Positions 1,692 through 32,825 are shown, numbered from the stretch's first letter. The stretch: 64,000 bases of DNA from Thermodesulfobacteriota bacterium (GCA_964291405.2 OZ219926.1:1504001-1568000), one strand, 5' to 3'. Program-made: numbers and translations. Notes: generated from the sequence alone by a model not told the origin.

Positions 1692-1699
<8 letters not shown>
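1411..1699. repeat. Perfect 17 bp inverted repeat pair bracketing the ectA upstream region
   Basis: TTTCTCACAATATGTTA at 1411-1427 is the exact reverse complement of TAACATATTGTGAGAAA at 1683-1699. Confidence 0.9.
1584..1612 (+). promoter_or_regulatory. Candidate sigma70-type promoter for the ect operon
   Basis: TTGCAA (1584-1589), 17 bp spacer, TAGAAA (1607-1612), with TG just upstream of the -10. The -10 is imperfect. Confidence 0.35.
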
Positions 1700-3905
<2,206 letters not shown>

Positions 3906-3906
<1 letters not shown>

Positions 3907-4823
3907 TGGCACCGACGAGCTCCGGCCGCGAAGACCTGTATCCGTCTCGGATAACCGGTCAGCCACGGCTGACCGAGCGCCTCGACCCGGTCGTCTACCC
4001 CAGCGATTCGGTGACGCAGCGACTGTCCGCCTCTGAGGTCGAGTCCTACGCGCAGCAGGGCTATCTGGTTGTGGAGCACCTGTTCCAGCCGGCTGAAATC
4101 GCCACGCTGAACCGCGAGTTGGAGCAACTGGTGCGCTCCGACGATATTCGGGATCGGGATGAAACCGTTGTCGAGCCCGGAGACCAGGCCGTGCGCTCGA
4201 TCTTTCGGGTCCACAAATTGAGCCGTGCATTCGAGCGGCTCGCCCGCGACCCTCGCGTCCTGGATGTGGCGCGTCAGTTGCTCGGCAGCGAGGTCTATAT
4301 CCACCAGTCCCGCGCCAATCTGAAGCCGGGTTTGACGGGCAAGGAGTTCTATTGGCACTCCGATTTCGAGACCTGGCATGTCGAGGACGGCATGCCGCGT
4401 ATGCGCGCTCTCAGCGTGTCGGTCGCCCTCACGGCCAACTTCACCTTCAACGGGCCCTTGATGCTGATCTCCGGCTCACACACCAGCTATGTTGTCTGCG
4501 CCGGTCGGACGCCTGAGAACCACTACAAGCAGTCGCTCCGCAAGCAGGAGTACGGAGTACCCGACCCGCATTTCCTCAAGCGGCTGGCCGACCAGGGCGG
4601 TATTGTCGCTCCCGTCGGGCCGGCCGGCTCGGCGGTGTTCTTCGACTGCAACACGCTGCACGGCTCAAACTCGAATATCTCTCCCTATCCCCGGCGCAAT
4701 GTCTTCATTGTCTATAACAGCGTTGCCAACACCCTGGAGGAGCCCTTTTGCGGTCTCAAGCCGCGTCCCGAACACATCGCGACCCGCGCGGACTTCGCCC
4801 CGCTGCTTCCTCTGTGCGCATGA
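3906..4823 (+). CDS. ectD: Ectoine hydroxylase
   Basis: EctD signature FYWHSDFETWHVEDGMP, DLYPSR N-terminus, HGSNSNISPYPR. Confidence 0.96.
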
Positions 4824-7897: not shown

Positions 7898-8104
7898 TCC
7901 AGATCGTTGTTCTCATTCGGGAGGGATACCTGGCTCAAGGAGCAAAAACGAATGGGAAAGAGTTTTTTATCAGACAGGTATCCCTGACCCCACAACCTCA
8001 GGATTATCTGGTGTTTATTGGTGCGGCGTTTGATCGCTCGGCGCTTCCTGCTGCGCTCGACTCGTGTCTCGTACCACACTAGAGCCATGGCAATCCGGGT
8101 CAGC

Positions 8105-8162
8105 TTGACAACCCCGGACCACTATTGTAATAAAATCTCTATTACAATTATTATGCAATAAT
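8105..8162 (+). promoter_or_regulatory. AT-rich palindromic operator/promoter upstream of hupE/ureJ (candidate metal-regulator site)
   Basis: TTGACA at 8105-8110; 9-7-9 inverted repeat ATTGTAATA (8124-8132) / TATTACAAT (8140-8148); overlapping ATTATT-ATGC-AATAAT palindrome. Confidence 0.55.
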
Positions 8163-8248
8163 GAATTCCCACGCACTGAACGAGCAGCCTTATTCCTCAT
8201 CACGATGACCCAGGCAAAGTCACGGATTTTCCAGAAGGGAGAGAAAAA

Positions 8249-8902
8249 ATGAATCGATATCTTTTAGCCGCGGTCGTTTTCACCATGAGTGCGGTTCCAG
8301 CCTTTGCGCACCACCCACTCGGTGGCCTGCCAATGGAGACACTAACCGACGGACTCTTGTCCGGCGTTGGACATCCGCTCTTGGGCTTTGATCATCTCTT
8401 CTTCGTTATCGCCGTTGGCATTGCGGCGCTTTACACCGGCCGCCCGAAACTGGCAACGGCCGCCTATATTGGTACGATGATGCTTGGCTGCCTGCTGATG
8501 AGTTTTGGCGTTGGCCTGCCTGTCAAGGAATTTGTGATCGGCGTTTCGCTTCTCGTTGTCGGCGGCATCCTTTTGTCCGGTCGTGCCACGGGTCTTACTC
8601 TGGCTGTCGGACTTTTCGCAGTTTTCGGCCTTTTCCACGGATCAGCCTTTGGCGACACGATCGCGGCCCAGGAAGCAGGAGCAGGCGTTACCGTTCTGGT
8701 GGGCTATTTGGTCGGGCTTGGCCTGCTGCAATACGGCTTGGCGCTCCTGGCCGGATTTGTTGCTCAAAATCTGCTGAAGGCGACCGAGGCGCAACATATT
8801 CATGCCCGCCTCGCCGGCGCTGTTGTTGCCGGTGTCGGCACGTTTCTCACGCTTGAGAACATTGAAGGCCTCGTCTTCGATATATTGGGTCTGGCTGTCT
8901 AG
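8249..8902 (+). CDS. HupE/UreJ family Ni/Co/Zn permease
   Basis: Signal peptide ending PAFA-HH, SGVGHPLLGFDH, FGLFHG motifs, multiple TM helices. Confidence 0.9.
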   Translation: MNRYLLAAVVFTMSAVPAFAHHPLGGLPMETLTDGLLSGVGHPLLGFDHLFFVIAVGIAALYTGRPKLATAAYIGTMMLGCLLMSFGVGLPVKEFVIGVSLLVVGGILLSGRATGLTLAVGLFAVFGLFHGSAFGDTIAAQEAGAGVTVLVGYLVGLGLLQYGLALLAGFVAQNLLKATEAQHIHARLAGAVVAGVGTFLTLENIEGLVFDILGLAV

Positions 8903-8954
8903 TAATCCCAAGCCAGACCCCGGACCGGGCTCACCGCATGGCCGAGGAGTCAGC

Positions 8955-9395
8955 ATGACCGAAACTGCCTCATCCGTTTTGGCGAAAGGGTCACCGACAT
9001 CTCATGGCACCTTTCGGTCATCCGTACTTCACGTGTGCACGTCCTGTAGGGCACCTGGCTCTCCGCGTGAGCCACGAGAGAGTCGAGCCGGCTTCAAACT
9101 CTATCAAGAGCTTCGCGCGACGTTCCATGAGAGCCCATTGGGCCACCACGTGGAGGTCAGGCCCACCGAGTGCCTGAGCGTATGCCCGCGCCCCTGCGGA
9201 ATCGCGCTCTCGTCGCCCGGAGCGTGGACCTACCTCTTCGGGGATCAGTACCCGGGCAAGAGCGCACGTGACATCGTAGAGTGCGTCTCGCTCTACATCG
9301 ATACCGGAGACGGGTTTATGCGGCGGGAGCGACGTCCGAAGTCCTTCCGCGCAAGCATTCTGGGGCGTGTGCCGCCATACGAGGGAGGGCGCTGA
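8955..9395 (+). CDS. DUF1636-like Cys-rich metal-binding protein
   Basis: Start re-assigned to ATG 8955 (GAGGAG RBS). VCTSC...ECLSVCPRPCGIAL...WTYLFGD...ILGRVPP pattern. Confidence 0.8.
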   Translation: MTETASSVLAKGSPTSHGTFRSSVLHVCTSCRAPGSPREPRESRAGFKLYQELRATFHESPLGHHVEVRPTECLSVCPRPCGIALSSPGAWTYLFGDQYPGKSARDIVECVSLYIDTGDGFMRRERRPKSFRASILGRVPPYEGGR

Positions 9396-9598
9396 TGCAT
9401 CCTAGCAGAAGGCATGCTTCCGCTCAGCCAGGCCGTCGCGTGGAGCGCCCTGACCGCACCCGCCGTGGTTTGGAGTCTCCGTCACTGCCCACTTGGTCAG
9501 ACGCAGTGCGTGTGTTGACGAGCGCTGAAACGCCTGCCGTGACGCCATCCGGCCCCATTGGTCTCGCCGTGTCGCAGGGAGAAGAGAGAACATGTTGA
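9395..9598 (+). CDS. Possible 67 aa translationally coupled ORF
   Basis: TGATG overlap with the upstream stop and overlap with the next ATG (9592); no recognisable motif. Confidence 0.25.
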   Translation: MHPSRRHASAQPGRRVERPDRTRRGLESPSLPTWSDAVRVLTSAETPAVTPSGPIGLAVSQGEERTC

Positions 9599-9900
9599 TC
9601 AACACATCACCACGCCGCCCGAACCGCGAACGGGTTCGACGTATTAAGGAGGCATTGCGCGAAGCGCTGAGCCTCTCCCATGACACGACGGTCACGGTCA
9701 CCGAGCTGGCGTGTCTCGAAGAAGGCTGTGCGCCCATCGAGACCGTGGTTGGCCTGCTTCGGCCCGATGCGCCACAGCTCCAGTACAAACTGCACAAACC
9801 CACGGACGCCGTTGACGCCGAAGACCTGGTCCAGGTCTGCACGGCGTGGGGATTCGACGTCCAGATTCCGGTGCTCGCACCGCTGCTCCAGGAGAACTAG
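9592..9900 (+). CDS. Small hypothetical protein with CxxxxC motif
   Basis: VTVTELACLEEGCAPIETVV and KLHKP motifs; abuts the COG0523 start; purine-rich RBS. Confidence 0.7.
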   Translation: MLINTSPRRPNRERVRRIKEALREALSLSHDTTVTVTELACLEEGCAPIETVVGLLRPDAPQLQYKLHKPTDAVDAEDLVQVCTAWGFDVQIPVLAPLLQEN

Positions 9901-11271
9901 ATGGATACACCAAATTTAGATTTAGGAATTACACCTCGACAAGTACCTGTTACCATCCTCACCGGCTTCCTCGGCTCTGGCAAGACGACCCTGCTCAACC
10001 GAATCTTGAGTGAGGAGCACGGCAAGCGCATTGCCGTGATCGAGAACGAGTACGGGGAGGTCGGCATCGATCAGGCGCTCGTCATCGACGCCGACGAGGA
10101 GATCTTCGAGATGTCGAACGGCTGCATCTGCTGCACGGTACGCGGAGACCTGATTCGCGTACTCGGCAATCTCATGAAGCGCCGCGACAAGTTCGACTAT
10201 GTGTTGGTGGAAACCACAGGGCTCGCCGATCCCGGTCCGGTCGCTCAGACGTTCTTCATGGACGACGAGATTCGCGCGGAGTTCTCGCTTGACGGGATCG
10301 TCACGCTCGTCGATGCAGCCCACATCGAACAGCAGCTCGGCCGAAGCGACGAAAGCACGGAGCAAATCGCTTTCGCAGACGTCCTCGTGCTCAACAAGAC
10401 GGACCTCGTCAACGGCGAGGCGCTCGACAGGCTCGAAGCTCGGCTCCGAGACATGAACCGCATGGCGCAAGTCGTGCGTAGCGAGCGGGCGAACGTCTCC
10501 GTCGACACGGTACTCAACCTCGGCGCCTTCGACCTGGACCAGGTGCTCGAGCGTCGTCCCACCTTCCTCGAGTCGGAGTATCCGTTCGAATGGACTGGAG
10601 TCTATTCGCTCCATACCGGCCGCTACGAACTTAGCCTCGCCGATGGGCCTGATCCTGCGATGTCGCTCGTCGTCGTGTCCGACCAGGGCACGGATGACGC
10701 TGCCCTCCGTGAGGGTGCGGAGTGGTGTGTGCGGCGGTACGCCGAACCTGCGGAAATCATTCGCCCGGGGGAAGAAATTCCTGTCGGAAAGCATGTGAAC
10801 CTCCGGCTCGATTCCCCAGGGCGCAAGTCGTTCTTCTTGGAGGTCGATACGCCGGTGCGGGTTGGCCTCTACGCCCAGCACACCGCGGAGGAGTTCGACC
10901 TCCAACTGACGAACGCGGATGGAGCGACAATCAGGCAAGAGATCGAGCGAACCTGGGTCGCACAGCACGAGCACGACGACGAGGTGGGCTCGATCGCGAT
11001 CGAGAGGGACGGCGACGTCGATCCCGACAGGCTCAACGCCTGGCTTGGCGAACTGCTCCGTGAGCGCGGGGTGGACATCTTCCGAATGAAGGGCTTCATC
11101 AGCCTCGCGGGCGAGTCGCATCGCTTCGTCTTCCAGGGGGTTCACATGCTCTTCGATGGACAGCCGGATCGGCCATGGGGCGACGCGCTCCGGCGCAATC
11201 AACTCGTCTTCATCGGTCGCAACCTCGATGAGCAGAGCATGCGGCGGGGGTTCGAAGCATGTCTGATTTGA
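9901..11271 (+). CDS. COG0523 (CobW/ZigA/YeiR-like) G3E metallochaperone GTPase with an inserted domain
   Basis: Walker A GFLGSGKT, IENEYG, GCICC, ETTGLADP, NKTD, CobW_C domain (RMKG, FQGVH, LVFIGRNLD). Confidence 0.95.
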   Translation: MDTPNLDLGITPRQVPVTILTGFLGSGKTTLLNRILSEEHGKRIAVIENEYGEVGIDQALVIDADEEIFEMSNGCICCTVRGDLIRVLGNLMKRRDKFDYVLVETTGLADPGPVAQTFFMDDEIRAEFSLDGIVTLVDAAHIEQQLGRSDESTEQIAFADVLVLNKTDLVNGEALDRLEARLRDMNRMAQVVRSERANVSVDTVLNLGAFDLDQVLERRPTFLESEYPFEWTGVYSLHTGRYELSLADGPDPAMSLVVVSDQGTDDAALREGAEWCVRRYAEPAEIIRPGEEIPVGKHVNLRLDSPGRKSFFLEVDTPVRVGLYAQHTAEEFDLQLTNADGATIRQEIERTWVAQHEHDDEVGSIAIERDGDVDPDRLNAWLGELLRERGVDIFRMKGFISLAGESHRFVFQGVHMLFDGQPDRPWGDALRRNQLVFIGRNLDEQSMRRGFEACLI

Positions 11272-11293
11272 ATGTCGAGCAGGAGGGGTCTGC

Positions 11294-12427
11294 ATGAGCG
11301 GCACCGAGAGCAGTGAAATCGTCTATGACGTAGTGGTCGTCGGCGCCGGTGCCGCAGGCGTGGGTGCCGCGGTGGCTCTCAAGCATGCTGGCATCGAGAA
11401 CTTCATAATTTCCGAGCGTCAAACGGTCGGTGCATCGTTCGCCTCCTGGCCGGCCGAGACTCGCTTCATCACGCCCTCGTACCCAACCAATTCGATTGGC
11501 ATGCTCGATTTGAACTCGATCGCGATTGGCACTTCACCCGCGTTCAGTTTGGGGGTCGAGCATCCGACGGGTAAAGAGTACGCGATGTATTTGCGTGCAG
11601 TAGCAAAATTCTTTGAGTTACCTGTACGCCAGGATACCGACGTGAGGCGGGTCGCAAAGGTTGGCGGCGGCTTTCGCATCGATACGGCCGACGAGACCTT
11701 GCAAGCCAAGCACGTCATTTGGGCCGCTGGAGAGTTCCAATACCCACGCTCAGGCGGGTTGGTTGGGAGCCAATTGTGTCGCCATACCGCGACCATCGCC
11801 AGCTATGAAGAGCTTGACGGGGACGACTTCATCGTTGTGGGTGGCTACGAAAGTGGTGTCGACGTGGCCTACCACCTGGCGTGTCGCGACAAACGAGTGC
11901 GGTTGTTCGACAAGGGTTGCCCGTGGGAGAACGAGAGTTCCGATCCCAGTGTCACGCTTTCCCCGTTTACGCTCGAACGGATGCATGAAGACCAGTTTGT
12001 TGAGCAAGTGGAACTGCTTCCGCACACACCTATCGAATCGGTCACTCGCGTGGACACCATGTATGAAGTCACGGCTCGGGACGGGCAGCGGTTTCAAACC
12101 CGCGTGCCGCCACTGTTGGCAGGCGGATTTGAGGGGAGTCACAAGTTAGTCGCGGATTTGTTTGAACGACGCGACGATGGCTCTCTGATTCTGAGCGAAC
12201 AGGATGAATCGACCATCGTACCGGGAGTGTTTCTGTGCGGTCCCGCAGTTCGCCATAACAATTACGTCTTCTGCTTTATCTTCAAATATCGACAGCGACT
12301 CGCCGTTGTCGCCAAAGCAATTGCGACCTCGTTAGGGCTGCCGGCGAAAGAGTTGGAAGAGTACTACCGCCAGTGGGGCATGTATCTCGACGACCTCTCC
12401 TGCTGTGGGGAGGAGTGCGTATGTTAA
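11294..12427 (+). CDS. NAD(P)/FAD-dependent oxidoreductase with Cys-rich C-terminus
   Basis: VVGAGAAG FAD site, WAAGEFQYP, VVGGYESG second nucleotide site, FCFIFKYRQR, ends DDLSCCGEECVC; AGGAGG RBS. Confidence 0.88.
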   Translation: MSGTESSEIVYDVVVVGAGAAGVGAAVALKHAGIENFIISERQTVGASFASWPAETRFITPSYPTNSIGMLDLNSIAIGTSPAFSLGVEHPTGKEYAMYLRAVAKFFELPVRQDTDVRRVAKVGGGFRIDTADETLQAKHVIWAAGEFQYPRSGGLVGSQLCRHTATIASYEELDGDDFIVVGGYESGVDVAYHLACRDKRVRLFDKGCPWENESSDPSVTLSPFTLERMHEDQFVEQVELLPHTPIESVTRVDTMYEVTARDGQRFQTRVPPLLAGGFEGSHKLVADLFERRDDGSLILSEQDESTIVPGVFLCGPAVRHNNYVFCFIFKYRQRLAVVAKAIATSLGLPAKELEEYYRQWGMYLDDLSCCGEECVC

Positions 12428-12648
12428 TGGGAAACGCCGAAGGGGCCGTCGCGTCTGACGCGAGGCGAAGCCGACGAGCCAGGATGCGGAGCATCGCATG
12501 GCTCGGACAAACGGCTGCCAGCGTTTGCTGGATTGGCAGCATGCTGACTGACGGGATCAGATCCGGTGGGGACTGGTTGCAGTTGTGTGCTGCATCCGCA
12601 TGGCTGTTGGCCAACATCGCAGCGATTGCGACTGCCGAAGCTGATTGA
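12421..12648 (+). CDS. Small two-helix membrane protein
   Basis: ATG 12421 overlaps the upstream stop, GGAGGAG RBS; two hydrophobic segments (WLGQTAASVCWIGSML; WLQLCAASAWLLANIAAI). Confidence 0.55.
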   Translation: MLMGNAEGAVASDARRSRRARMRSIAWLGQTAASVCWIGSMLTDGIRSGGDWLQLCAASAWLLANIAAIATAEAD

Positions 12649-12649
12649 T

Positions 12650-13714
12650 ATGTCGGCGGCAAGAGTTCGACGCAGGTCTGATTTGAATGTCGACAGCCCG
12701 AGGGGTGTTCTTCGCCGGGGCTGGTCTGCGGCGGTCGGCGACTACGCCATCGCCGGGGGTTGGAGCCTACGCGGTGAGGCGCTGATGGTCGGTGATGCTG
12801 AGGGTGGCGTTTACGCACTTGACGGCAAGTCTGGCGCGACCGTCTGGGCGCGGCGCGGGGTTCATGAAGGCGGTGTGCTCGCGGTGGCGATCCACCCAAG
12901 TGGAACCGCGTTCGCTACGGCCGGCCAGGACGGACGAGTCTTAATCTGGAGTGCTGCCGAAGGTCAGGTAAGCCGGGCTATCGACATCGGAAGCGGTTGG
13001 GTAGAAAACGTGGCGTGGTCGCCGGACGGCCAATGGTTGGCGGCCTCCTGCTCCCGGCAGGTTCGTGCGTATGGTGCGGACGGCGCGGAGGTTTGGCGAT
13101 CTGATGATCATCCCAGCACCGTCAGTGCGATCGCCTGGTCGGGCGTAGGGGAACTGGCGACGGCCTGTTACGGTCGAGTGACGTTCTTCGACGCGTCCAC
13201 CGGCGAGCTTCGCCAGAAGCTGGAGTGGCAGGGCTCCTTGGTGTCGATGGTACTGAGCCCGGACGGAGATATCGTGGCCTGCGGCAGCCAGGACAACTCG
13301 GTGCACTTCTGGCGTCGCTCCACTGAGCAGGACTCCATGATGTCAGGATACCCTGCCAAGCCGTCGGCCCTGGCTTTCGATGACACCGGCACCCTCTTGG
13401 CCACCGGCGGAGGGGAGGCGGTGACGGTCTGGAGCTTCCAGGGAAGTGGTCCCGAAGGCACGCGACCCGGCGTTCTAGAGCTTCATGCTCAACCCGTCAC
13501 GACGCTTGCCTTCGCTCGCCGCGCGATGCGCCTGGCATCGGGAGGCCGCGATGGTGCCGTGGTTGTGTGGTCGCTTCAGAGAGATGGAGAAGGCGATCCG
13601 ATAGGAGGCGCGGTTGTGGCGGGCGTAGTGGCCGAATTGTACTGGCGGCCAGACGGGCGGGCGCTTGCCGCGCTCGACGCGCGGGGTGGCGTGACGGTTT
13701 GGCGGATAGGATGA
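12650..13714 (+). CDS. WD40-repeat beta-propeller protein
   Basis: Repeats ATAGQDGRVLIW, VAWSPDG, ACGSQDNSVHFW, LASGGRDGAVVVW; start re-assigned to ATG 12650. Confidence 0.9.
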   Translation: MSAARVRRRSDLNVDSPRGVLRRGWSAAVGDYAIAGGWSLRGEALMVGDAEGGVYALDGKSGATVWARRGVHEGGVLAVAIHPSGTAFATAGQDGRVLIWSAAEGQVSRAIDIGSGWVENVAWSPDGQWLAASCSRQVRAYGADGAEVWRSDDHPSTVSAIAWSGVGELATACYGRVTFFDASTGELRQKLEWQGSLVSMVLSPDGDIVACGSQDNSVHFWRRSTEQDSMMSGYPAKPSALAFDDTGTLLATGGGEAVTVWSFQGSGPEGTRPGVLELHAQPVTTLAFARRAMRLASGGRDGAVVVWSLQRDGEGDPIGGAVVAGVVAELYWRPDGRALAALDARGGVTVWRIG

Positions 13715-20007: not shown

Positions 20008-20152
20008 TGCTTGTCTCCTCCTATCTTCGATTCCGAGATTTTTCAGATCGCACCTTAGCGAAATTGCAAGTCACCGGCTACCAGCCATTTCAGGATGGAA
20101 ATGGTGTGAAGCGATCGTCTTCTAGGCTATTGGAAAGAAAAGAGGGGAGGAG

Positions 20153-20225
<73 letters not shown>

Positions 20226-30917: not shown

Positions 30918-32825
30918 CTAGGTTTTTCGCAGCTTGCGTACATCACCGACTCGGACCGTGAGGCCGCTACGGTCGAAGTATTCCAGCAGGGGAATGGCAG
31001 TTTTTCGGCTAATACCGAGCAGGTCACGAAATATGGCCGCGGTAATTTCTCCGTGAGTCGCCACGTAGTCAGTCAGTGCCTCCTTCGCTTGACCTAGCAC
31101 TGTTCCACTGATGTAGAAATCCGGTATAATTTTGACCAGCGTGCCCCGTGACTCAAGCACCCCTAAGAAATCGTTCAGCCGCTTACGAGGAAGTTGTAGT
31201 AACTCCGCCAGCCCCTTCGTGTCCGGTGGGGTGAATTGTCCGTCTTGCACGAGCCGTTCGAGGCGAGCGGCGATGGCCTGCTCTTCCTGGCTCAACGAGA
31301 CAGTGTGGGAGGGCAGACGCAGCAGGCTCTCGTGGCGAACAACAATCCCCTCCGCAATAAGCCGTTCGGCCACAGCCCGAAAAATCTTGGGAGTCAGGCT
31401 AAACGGCAATTGGCTTCGCACCGACTCCATTTCCATCCCCTGAGCCAGCGGAGTCTGGGCGTGAAAGACGGTCAGCATCTTTTCGACGGCGGCAACCAAC
31501 CGCTGCCATTTTGTCGTAATGGAATAGGCTTCGGGATGCTGGGCATCGGGAAAAGGCAGAATCGCCTCATCGTTTGCAAGCAGGACAGTAATTTCCTCCT
31601 CCCGCGCATTCACCCCATGGTAAATCTCGTCCAGCCGGACGGCAAACTGCGGGCAAACTTCCAGATAGGCGTGGCAGGCCTCACGCAGGTCTAGGGTTTG
31701 CAGGGCATGCAAGCGTTCCGTGACCTGAGTTTCCGCCTTACGGTGGCGTTGGGCAAAAGGATTGACCACCACCCCGCCACCCAAGGTCCCCTGCGCGGTT
31801 TGATTTCGCAGCACGAAGTGGTCCCCGCGCAGGGCAACCAAGGGCTCCTGGGCGACAATTTGACACAGGGCTGTCGATTTCGGCGGCAAGACCTCATGCC
31901 CACCAAGCAAGATGATTTTTCCAATGACTTCTGCCGTGCCAAGATGAATGCGCACCCGCTCGTGGTTCACGACCTCGCGTCCCGCGCTCGGCCGAATTTC
32001 GACGCTGGCATCAAAACGGGTGGTCGTCATACTGACTTTGGGATGACACACGACATGGCCACGAGCCATCTCCGCCTTATCCAGTCCGACCAGATTCAGC
32101 GCAACCCGCTGCCCCCAATGCGCTTCGGACATGTCCTCCCCATGGACTTGGAGCGAACGCACGCGCGCTTCGCTCTGCGTCGGAAGCACGCGGACGGTCT
32201 CACCTTCTCGGACGGTTCCGGCCAGCGCGGTTCCGGTCACAACAACCCCGTGCCCTTTGAGCGTAAAGACCCGATCGACCGGCAGCCGAAAGTATCCGGG
32301 CTGGGAGGGCCGGCTATAGGCTTCAAGCTGCCGCGCAATCTCCTGTTGCAGGCTGTCCAAACCTTGACCGGTAATAGAGGAGACCGGCAGGATGGGTGCA
32401 TCTTCAAAAATGGTGTCAATCGTCAGAATTTCGATTTCTTCCCGGACCTCTTCAATCCGCTCGGGACCCACCATATCGGCTTTTGTAATAACGAAGAGAC
32501 CTTTTTGGACGCCCAGCAAGTGGAGAAAATCGAAATGCTCTTCGGTTTGGGGCATCACGCCATCGTCCGCGGCAACGGTAAACAGCACCAAGTCTATCCC
32601 TTGGGCGCCGGCCAGCATATTGCGGATAAAACGCTCGTGACCAGGCACATCAACGATCCCGGCCCGTTCACCATTGGGCAAATCCAGATAGGCAAAGCCG
32701 AGATCAATGGAGATGCCCCGTTCCTTTTCCTCTTTGAGCCGGTCAGTGTCGTGTCCGGTCAGAGCCTTGAGCAAGGAGGTCTTGCCGTGGTCAATATGTC
32801 CGGCAGTGCCAATAATATGCGGCAT
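30918..32825 (-). CDS. selB: Selenocysteine-specific elongation factor
   Basis: [40 protein letters not shown]-terminal winged helix [20 protein letters not shown]. Confidence 0.96.

Follow-up and report, generated by a model that had tools for sequence, protein, structure and literature searches.

A candidate Zur-type zinc-starvation operon in a Thermodesulfobacteriota bacterium: a mosaic of three separately conserved modules

Gene content and organization of the locus

A cluster of genes with potential metal ligands was analyzed in a 64,000-nucleotide (nt) stretch of DNA from a Thermodesulfobacteriota bacterium (GCA_964291405.2, OZ219926.1:1504001-1568000), here called the window. Open reading frame (ORF) calls and family searches showed seven tightly packed genes at positions 8249-13714, all on the + strand. 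They encode a HupE/UreJ permease (8249..8902; PF04955, 99.2 bits, cut-off 23), a DUF1636 protein (8955..9395; PF07845, 110.7 bits, cut-off 31.6), a small CxxxxC protein of 102 amino acids (aa) (9592..9900), a long COG0523 GTPase of 456 aa (9901..11271), a Pyr_redox_3 flavoprotein of 377 aa (11294..12427; PF13738, 311.6 bits), a two-helix hydrophobic protein of 73 aa without Pfam match (12427..12648, with 12421 as the other possible start), and a WD40 beta-propeller of 354 aa without a signal peptide (12650..13714; PF00400, 101.2 bits). The intergenic gaps are, in order, 52 nt, 196 nt, 0 nt (TAG-ATG), 22 nt, a stop/start overlap, and 1 nt. The overlap, between the flavoprotein stop and the start of the hydrophobic gene, reads GTATGTTAATG; the junction with the WD40 gene reads TGA-T-ATG, and ATG 12650 is the most likely WD40 start. 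A preceding sequence-only reading of this DNA had counted seven or eight co-oriented, abutting or overlapping genes. The orientation and packing stand, but the genes are seven, not eight. The Cys and His motifs which it had listed for HupE, DUF1636, the small protein, the GTPase, and the flavoprotein are all readable in the translations.

The HupE/UreJ permease has a signal-peptide-like N-terminus, followed by HHP. It carries AHHP and HPLLGFDH (GHPLLGFDH in the translation); HPxxGxDH is a signature of the HupE/UreJ family. The DUF1636 protein contains the Cys motif CTSC...CLSVCPRPC (CxxC...CxxxCxxxC), and weakly matches a 2Fe-2S ferredoxin model. Its true start is most likely ATG 8955, not 8802, since the Pfam match begins at residue 76 of the longer ORF and the relatives start with MTETASS. 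No functional study of DUF1636 was found among the papers listed in a literature search. Behind this gene lies a conserved non-coding spacer (9396..9591, + strand), which showed 72% mean column identity in an alignment of 8 Binatia-type loci. This conservation equals that of coding sequence, yet indels of 1, 3, 12, and ~68 nt would break any reading frame. The spacer has no Rfam match; it may act as an internal promoter or as a leader, perhaps a structured one.

No + strand terminator was predicted within or after the seven genes, except one weak site inside hupE. Contigs from RNA libraries span the GTPase/flavoprotein and the flavoprotein/hydrophobic-gene junctions; these are assembled contigs, so DNA carry-over is possible and a single transcript is not demonstrable from them.

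Three separately conserved modules

Gene neighbourhoods were compared in two sets of 80 loci, one from metagenomes with the small protein as anchor, the other from genomes with the flavoprotein as anchor. The locus is a mosaic of three modules, each conserved separately from the others: the HupE/UreJ permease with DUF1636 (module 1); the 102-aa CxxxxC protein with the long COG0523 GTPase and WD40 (module 2); and the flavoprotein with its CCx3CxC motif and the 73-aa hydrophobic protein (module 3). At least 1400 nt downstream were available in 48 of the small-protein loci, and at least 2500 nt in 36, so the counts from this set are lower bounds. COG0523 was found in 69 of them, less than 200 nt downstream in 56; WD40 was found in 45 (41 at >=50% coverage), usually directly after the long COG0523. 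DUF1636 was near this trio in 4/80 loci, and the flavoprotein was present in 1/80. In the flavoprotein-anchored set, the 73-aa partner adjoins the flavoprotein in 79/80 loci and is the only constant neighbour; WD40 is far less frequent (14 loci), as are the small protein (12), DUF1636 (8), and HupE (7). All the HupE genes were in Binatia (7/9 Binatia loci, 0/71 loci of other taxa). The sequence-only reading had proposed a self-contained relay, and had named neighbourhood co-occurrence as a check. On that check the modules come apart.

The host genome is taken to be that of a sponge-associated member of the Binatia; its nearest public relatives are Candidatus Binatia metagenome-assembled genomes (MAGs). 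Six other Binatia genomes and a single metagenome contig keep the seven-gene arrangement, at 83-97% identity. In the metagenome relatives, the GTPase directly adjoins WD40. In 3 of 4 runs, RNA-library contigs likewise joined positions ~11226-11276 to ~12656-12696, which indicates that relatives carry the GTPase-WD40 pair without the flavoprotein pair. The flavoprotein pair is thus an insertion between the GTPase and WD40 in this lineage. The distribution within the genus is patchy: of 24 same-genus genomes, 8 have the small protein and 9 have the flavoprotein. Neither was found in 16 genomes from other genera of the class. A different arrangement was seen in locus L015, a Binatia MAG, where HupE stands directly before the flavoprotein, and DUF1636, the small protein, and the GTPase are missing.

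The hupE promoter and the main zinc locus

A candidate promoter/operator is located upstream of hupE (8105..8160, + strand), in a region conserved in 7 Binatia loci. It consists of TTGACA (8105-8110), a 17-nt spacer, and TAATAA (8128-8133), with AT-rich inverted repeats and a 17-bp core. The inverted repeat TGTAATA-N7-TATTACA (8126-8146) overlaps the promoter candidate, and a consensus scan likewise flags 8125-8154. By itself this repeat does not suffice as a regulon motif, since it is unique to the hupE promoter genome-wide. The core TTACAATTATTATGCAA is at 8142-8158. Its pattern, TTACAAY-N5-TGCAA, occurs 4 times in the host genome (4.95 Mb, 58% GC), against 0.48 expected (both strands, order-1 Markov).

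All four core sites lie upstream of zinc-locus genes: before hupE (window 8142), before the gene of a secreted protein with His/Asp/Glu repeats, before a divergent Fur-family/COG0523 pair, and before a His-rich porin-like gene, with ZnuA (PF01297) and a MerC-ABC ATPase fusion behind it. The pattern was derived post hoc from three sites; its uniqueness and the fourth site are the independent part of the result. The Fur/COG0523 and secreted-protein sites resemble each other beyond the core, a similarity which does not extend to the hupE and porin-like/znuA sites. Since the extra similarity exists only within each pair, two unrelated promoter families carry the same core.

The main zinc locus of the genome (C3:372387-381462) contains the secreted-protein gene, a Fur-family gene, COG0523, the porin-like gene, ZnuA, and the MerC-ABC ATPase fusion. 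The secreted protein (1051 aa) has long HGHEDE/DDHEGE repeats; neither this protein nor the porin-like protein (554 aa) has a Pfam match. The fusion, in which an ABC ATPase is joined to a MerC domain, is unusual. The genome encodes two Fur-family genes, one of them within this locus (C3:375785-376105). Window positions 7953-8174 are 85% identical over 222 nt to C3:377336-377556, where the gene of a COG0523 paralogue (339 aa) ends and the porin-like/ZnuA/ZnuC operon has its promoter. Because of this match, the hupE promoter evidently came with a COG0523-gene fragment. The remnant (7953..8082, + strand), duplicated together with the promoter on its 3' side, corresponds to about the last 40 codons of the paralogue and reads ...LVFIGAAFDRSALPAALDSCLVPH before the stop. 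It is placed between a thiolase-like gene and the hupE promoter. The operator core common to the hupE promoter and the znuA locus, although a post hoc motif, links the operon to the zinc-uptake genes of the same genome. On this basis, the hupE operon is placed as a putative part of a Zur-type regulon.

The long COG0523 GTPase and its companions

The GTPase belongs to the COG0523 family, as it exceeded the Pfam cut-offs for both cobW (PF02492, 209.5 vs 20.7 bits) and CobW_C (PF07683, 94.5 vs 22 bits). The COG0523 motif set has been given as Walker A GxxGxGKT, N(G/S)CxCC, ETTG, and NKxD (PMC11672702). An alignment of 27 sequences shows the corresponding GFLGSGKTT, NGCICC, VETTGLADP, and LNKTD with little or no variation, and the GTPase also carries GCICC and HEHDD. 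It scored below the cut-offs of the curated models for CobW (TIGR02475, 211 vs 332.1 bits), ZigA (NF038288, 204 vs 600 bits), and YjiA (NF008578, 256.7 vs 361 bits), and weakly matched the Mrf model of NCBIfam (31 bits). No protein of the host genome exceeded the ZigA cut-off, the best scoring 180 bits.

An insert of ~140 aa (residues ~222-355), containing EPEYPFEW, GPDP, and QH..EEF, is conserved in the 27 sequences. The alignment of YjiA from the PDB splits into two stretches which flank it. The insert was modelled as a confident beta-sandwich, with a predicted local distance difference test (pLDDT) score of 88.1. Searches for solved relatives gave a best E of 0.019 in Foldseek and a best Z of 6.1 in a VIA-wide search, with GOLD/CBM-like beta-sandwiches. 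As modelled, the insert is a generic beta-sandwich and nothing narrower.

The small protein belongs to a family of 436 cluster representatives at E<=1e-3 in an exhaustive HMMER search. The family motif is ELxCxExGCPPxET, in which C41, C46, and E50 are invariant; the window copy reads CLEEGC. No sequence match was found in Pfam, NCBIfam, or the PDB, and a PDB profile search returned nothing meaningful. Family names were also considered. Pfam searches on 40 members gave single chance matches only, and the automatic name 'nitrate reductase delta subunit family' in a protein atlas lacks Pfam support, the other clusters being named 'hypothetical protein'. The AlphaFold2 model (pLDDT 89.9) has an alpha-beta3-alpha2 arrangement, with both Cys residues in the beta1-beta2 hairpin. 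Foldseek found nothing better than E 0.045 in the PDB. In the VIA-wide search, the best Z was 5.5, and 8 of the 10 top matches were hibernation factors (HPF/RaiA/pY/MPY/RafH), with Z 5.0-5.5, root-mean-square deviation 3.0-3.8, and 76-84 aligned residues; these Z values are below the guide value of 8. Complex prediction of the GTPase with the small protein, run without controls, gave scores of 0.15, 0.32, and 0.30 (median 0.30, against a mark of 0.32), which favour neither binding nor its absence.

The COG0523 proteins of the trio loci are of the same long type, with 52-97% identity where full length. Clustering of the neighbours in the 80 small-protein loci gave ZnuA in 27, an ABC ATPase in 23, Fur-family genes in 18 (12+6), and an ABC-3 permease in 11, followed by ZIP (7), ZrgA (6), DUF3386 (6), and FolE (5); one representative of each family was confirmed by Pfam. 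A Cys-rich protein of ~149 aa without Pfam match (CLGCCCGRxDRG ... SGCLGPCD) was near the trio in 11/80 loci (L157, L099, and 9 others). It may be an analogue of DUF1636.

The four-Cys flavoprotein and its 73-aa partner

The flavoprotein ends with CCGEECVC, and its relatives share the invariant tail WGMYLDDLSCCGxxCxC. The CCx3-4CxC tail was present in 13/13 aligned marine sequences, in PDB entry 3D1C, and in 5/5 plasmid homologues. The entry 3D1C, presumably from S. aureus, aligned with residues 12-377 (E 1.9e-73), including the ...MYLDDxSCCxxxCxC tail. The flavoprotein has the full-length Pyr_redox_3 fold together with the C-terminal tail, which places it in the 3D1C-type family. The entry is a structural-genomics 'flavin-containing putative monooxygenase' with no function attached, and in the literature searched it was cited only in a nucleotide-site benchmark. 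By its accession numbering, 3D1C is the putative product or orthologue of NWMN_2483/SA2370. Literature searches on 3D1C, the locus tags, ZigA/S. aureus, and the Klebsiella zigA/folE2 plasmids found nothing on the function of the flavoprotein.

The 73-aa protein has the consensus WLGQTxASxCWI...GDWLQLxAASAWLLANIA. It had been called a membrane peptide in the sequence-only reading. Its 19-residue Kyte-Doolittle maxima (1.13 and 1.57) are only moderately hydrophobic, but membrane insertion is plausible from the sequence.

Close homologues of the flavoprotein, with 70-97% identity, are spread over about seven phyla (Binatia, Latescibacterota, Spirochaetia, Dehalococcoidia, Nitrospirales, Myxococcota, and Planctomycetota among the phyla and classes), many in MAGs from sponges or seawater. 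COG0523 is directly upstream in 33 of the 73 flavoprotein loci having room for it. The three such GTPases tested, from Planctomycetota and Myxococcota, all passed the ZigA cut-off (604-632 vs 600 bits). In Planctomycetota and Nitrospirales, Fur-family genes are near the pair in 11 loci. In all 25 Dehalococcoidia loci, the pair occurs without COG0523 and with no recurrent neighbour within 6 kb. Apparent WD40 matches in the Dehalococcoidia loci were rejected as a tblastn artefact of an ORF start at 12566, the first 28 codons of which overlap the hydrophobic gene in another frame.

An unannotated family of ~200 aa (QQVWCWGRDILRPEGNW) was also found after the flavoprotein pair in Planctomycetota and Nitrospirales, as one or two tandem paralogous copies ~200-1500 nt past the flavoprotein (L049, L050, L052, L059, L071, L072, L077, L079, L084, L086, and L089). 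It has the motif QQVWCWGRDILRPEGNWL ... GFGVFYGD ... LPRYEFRPRYT and no Pfam match, and is often followed by a second ZigA-like GTPase.

Distant homologues in zinc-starvation islands

A translated search of PLSDB found 539 plasmids with a flavoprotein homologue at 36-47% identity. The hosts were Klebsiella (498), Escherichia (20), Enterococcus (6), haloarchaea (5), Acaryochloris (4), Staphylococcus (2), and others. Five annotated plasmid contexts were viewed, and all five are zinc-starvation islands. The Klebsiella island contains carbonate dehydratase, folE2, dksA, COG0523, a repressor, cysS, the flavoprotein, a FeoB-like protein, zigA, hisI, and a repressor. The Acaryochloris island has zigA, several Fur-family genes, the flavoprotein, and a FeoB-like protein; the Paracoccus island has aztABC, a repressor, COG0523, the flavoprotein, and cysS. 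In Haloferax, the order is COG0523, flavoprotein, S14, FeoB-like protein, and hisI; in Paenibacillus, it is COG0523, rpsN, flavoprotein, FeoB-domain protein, and rpmG. Large plasmids (Klebsiella pneumoniae IncHI1B L172; L173, L175, and L176) have complete islands of this kind, in which the gene after the flavoprotein encodes a FeoB-like GTPase-permease (~550 aa), annotated as 'nucleoside recognition domain-containing protein'. A profile hidden Markov model of the 73-aa protein showed no similarity to the FeoB-like proteins of the plasmid islands.

In S. aureus, NWMN_2481-2483 are listed under the zinc-limitation response, and the last column of the listing reads Yes (43.2), Yes (83.1), and Yes (152) (PMC5480029). 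From the surrounding text of that source, this column is taken to be induction by calprotectin. A likely S. aureus counterpart of the flavoprotein is thus listed as co-induced with a COG0523 gene.

Genomic surroundings

Upstream of the cluster are ectoine genes, a sodium-solute symporter gene, and the thiolase-like gene. The ectoine/hydroxyectoine set (GNAT acetyltransferase, class-III aminotransferase, ectoine synthase, and PhyH-type dioxygenase), followed by the symporter gene, occupies window positions 1692-4823. Downstream, on the opposite strand, are HpaB and a fused carboxylase. Farther along the window, a gene for the selenocysteine-specific elongation factor SelB (30918-32825, - strand) indicates that the organism probably makes selenoproteins. 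The sole tRNA in the window is tRNA-Ala(GGC) (20152-20225).

Comparison with known systems

The operon is of a known kind, a Zur-type COG0523 operon with a COG0523-WD40 pair. Genes of prokaryotic COG0523 'subfamily 5' were reported to cluster with those for WD40 and ZnuABC, in some cases downstream of Zur sites (Haas et al. 2009, PMC2770081). The present loci are alike: COG0523 is followed by WD40, ZnuABC and Fur/Zur-like genes are near, and a candidate Zur site is upstream. The WD40 and ZnuA counts of the trio loci (45/80 and 27/80) show the clustering described for this subfamily. The COG0523-WD40 link given in the sequence-only reading is thus confirmed, whereas its proposal that the system as a whole is undescribed is not supported. 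In the text of the 2009 paper, as far as available, the 102-aa protein and the GTPase insert are not mentioned; its context figures may show them. The literature searched gave no description of the composite architecture, of the small Cys family, of the insert in the GTPase, or of the pairing of the flavoprotein with the hairpin protein.

The ZigA-type islands resemble the locus in having a flavoprotein of the same family, with the CCx3-4CxC end, beside COG0523 and Fur-family repressors, usually with a membrane-protein gene next. However, the GTPase here is the long WD40-type and not ZigA; the partner is a 73-aa two-helix protein, whereas a ~550-aa FeoB-like GTPase-permease is found there; and the operon here has no zinc-independent enzyme paralogues. 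The flavoprotein also shares the two-Rossmann FAD/NAD(P)H fold of YpdA/Bdr and the thioredoxin reductases, with weak matches in sequence (PDB 7A76/7A7B, E 4e-9 to 1e-8). It differs from them in lacking a CxxC near the flavin and in its four-Cys tail, which is foreign to those families, and it scored far below the YpdA/Bdr model (TIGR04018, 82.9 vs 339.9 bits).

Interpretation of the locus

The seven genes are probably one Zur-type zinc-starvation operon, assembled from three modules which are conserved separately elsewhere. When zinc is scarce, the Fur-family repressor encoded at C3:375785-376105 would leave the AT-rich operator overlapping the hupE -10 region. HupE/UreJ and DUF1636 would then bring divalent metal across the inner membrane, and the metal may bind four cysteines. 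Module 2 would act as a GTP-driven metallochaperone, with its CxCC site, which distributes the scarce zinc among clients; its small protein and WD40 propeller would be accessory or adaptor subunits. Anchored at the membrane by its partner, the flavoprotein would most likely be an NAD(P)H-dependent reductase, performing a redox step tied to metal supply. As a reductase it might support import or mobilisation, or keep thiolate ligands reduced. It might also be a client itself, as the sequence-only reading had suggested, its four-Cys tail being loaded by the chaperone. The sequence-only reading had linked the cluster to metal. The metal is most likely zinc, and the ZnuABC, ZIP, ZrgA, and Fur-family neighbours together with the common operator core agree with this. 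Gene content, modules, co-occurrence, and the common core are direct observations; we infer that the metal is zinc, that Zur represses the operon, and how the metal is passed on at each step.

Several points weigh against this assignment. The GTPase is below every curated equivalog cut-off, and it is gene context that places it in subfamily 5. The operator motif was derived from three of the four sites, and the four form two pairs of paralogous copies. HupE/UreJ and DUF1636 are classically tied to nickel and cobalt, and the link of all seven genes to zinc is a putative one. The Dehalococcoidia loci show that the flavoprotein pair needs no adjacent chaperone or recognisable zinc context. Transcription as one unit is presumed, and a second promoter might lie within the conserved spacer of 196 nt. 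Horizontal spread would account as well as functional constraint for the very high identity across phyla together with the patchy occurrence within the genus (9 of 24 genomes).

Other explanations were weighed against the same data. An integrated relay, in which the permease imports metal, DUF1636 and the small protein serve as Cys carriers, the flavoprotein reduces, the GTPase delivers, and WD40 is the adaptor, would explain the tight packing with overlapping stops and starts, the clustered Cys or His residues in every protein but WD40, and the gene order kept among the Binatia at 83-97% identity. However, the modules separate freely outside the genus, the flavoprotein pair was inserted into the GTPase-WD40 pair, and L015 has HupE directly before the flavoprotein without DUF1636, the small protein, or the GTPase. 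Such a relay is improbable. Supply of cobalt or nickel, by a CobW-like GTPase with HupE/UreJ and DUF1636, to B12, urease, or hydrogenase encoded elsewhere has to be judged against a known context. CobW, HupE, and DUF1636 co-occur in the cobalt-supply contexts of B12 gene clusters, and the same three Pfam families are together at this locus. CobW is also the second-best NCBIfam match of the GTPase (211 bits), and a UreG-like gene is present elsewhere in the genome. But the match misses the CobW cut-off of 332 bits, and the window has no cob genes. An RNA-family scan of the window found one tRNA only and no riboswitch, the cobalamin type included. As the sequence-only reading had stated, no cobalamin, urease, hydrogenase, or nitrile-hydratase family was found among the 59 window ORFs (49 of them at E<=1e-8). 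Elsewhere, GTPases of the same type neighbour the zinc-uptake genes ZnuABC, ZIP, and ZrgA and Fur-family genes, and the operator core is common to the znuA operon. Cobalt or nickel supply is therefore considered very unlikely.

The hibernation-factor matches of the small protein raise the question of a ribosome-directed module, in which a hibernation-factor-like binder would be recruited by the GTPase, with WD40, under zinc starvation. The analogy is to the mycobacterial COG0523 protein Mrf, which recruits MPY (Mrf is named in PMC11672702), and is consistent with the 8 of 10 top structural matches and the weak match of the GTPase to the Mrf model. However, Z values below 8 may reflect only a common alpha-beta3-alpha arrangement; double-stranded RNA-binding domains are in the same list, and Foldseek gave nothing at E<0.045. 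None of the 40 family members searched matched a ribosomal or hibernation Pfam family at E<=1, and the two invariant Cys residues have no counterpart in such a role. This explanation is given the lowest probability of those considered here.

A broader proposal concerns the flavoprotein beyond this locus. Together with a membrane partner, which is the 73-aa hairpin here and a FeoB-like permease elsewhere, it might be a universal partner or client of Zur-regulated COG0523 chaperones, of both the ZigA and the WD40 type, in S. aureus, Klebsiella plasmids, haloarchaea, and sponge symbionts. The GTPase would load or unload metal on the four-Cys tail, and through the flavin, NAD(P)H would be coupled with the release or uptake of metal at the membrane. 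We regard a relationship of this generality as rather unlikely.

Implications for Zur-regulated COG0523 chaperones

Recent reviews, in the portions available, describe the clients of bacterial Zur-regulated COG0523 proteins as unknown. The zinc-starvation operon proposed here offers two widespread candidates for missing partners, the 102-aa Cys protein and the flavoprotein with the four-Cys tail. The former almost always accompanies the WD40-type GTPase; the latter recurs beside COG0523 in zinc-starvation islands of bacteria and archaea, including the 498 Klebsiella plasmids. Both are directly expressible and assayable. If the partner or client relationship of the flavoprotein were true, these chaperones would have their first conserved partner or client in bacteria. 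The locus also illustrates the exchange of ready-made zinc-starvation modules across phyla among sponge-associated bacteria.

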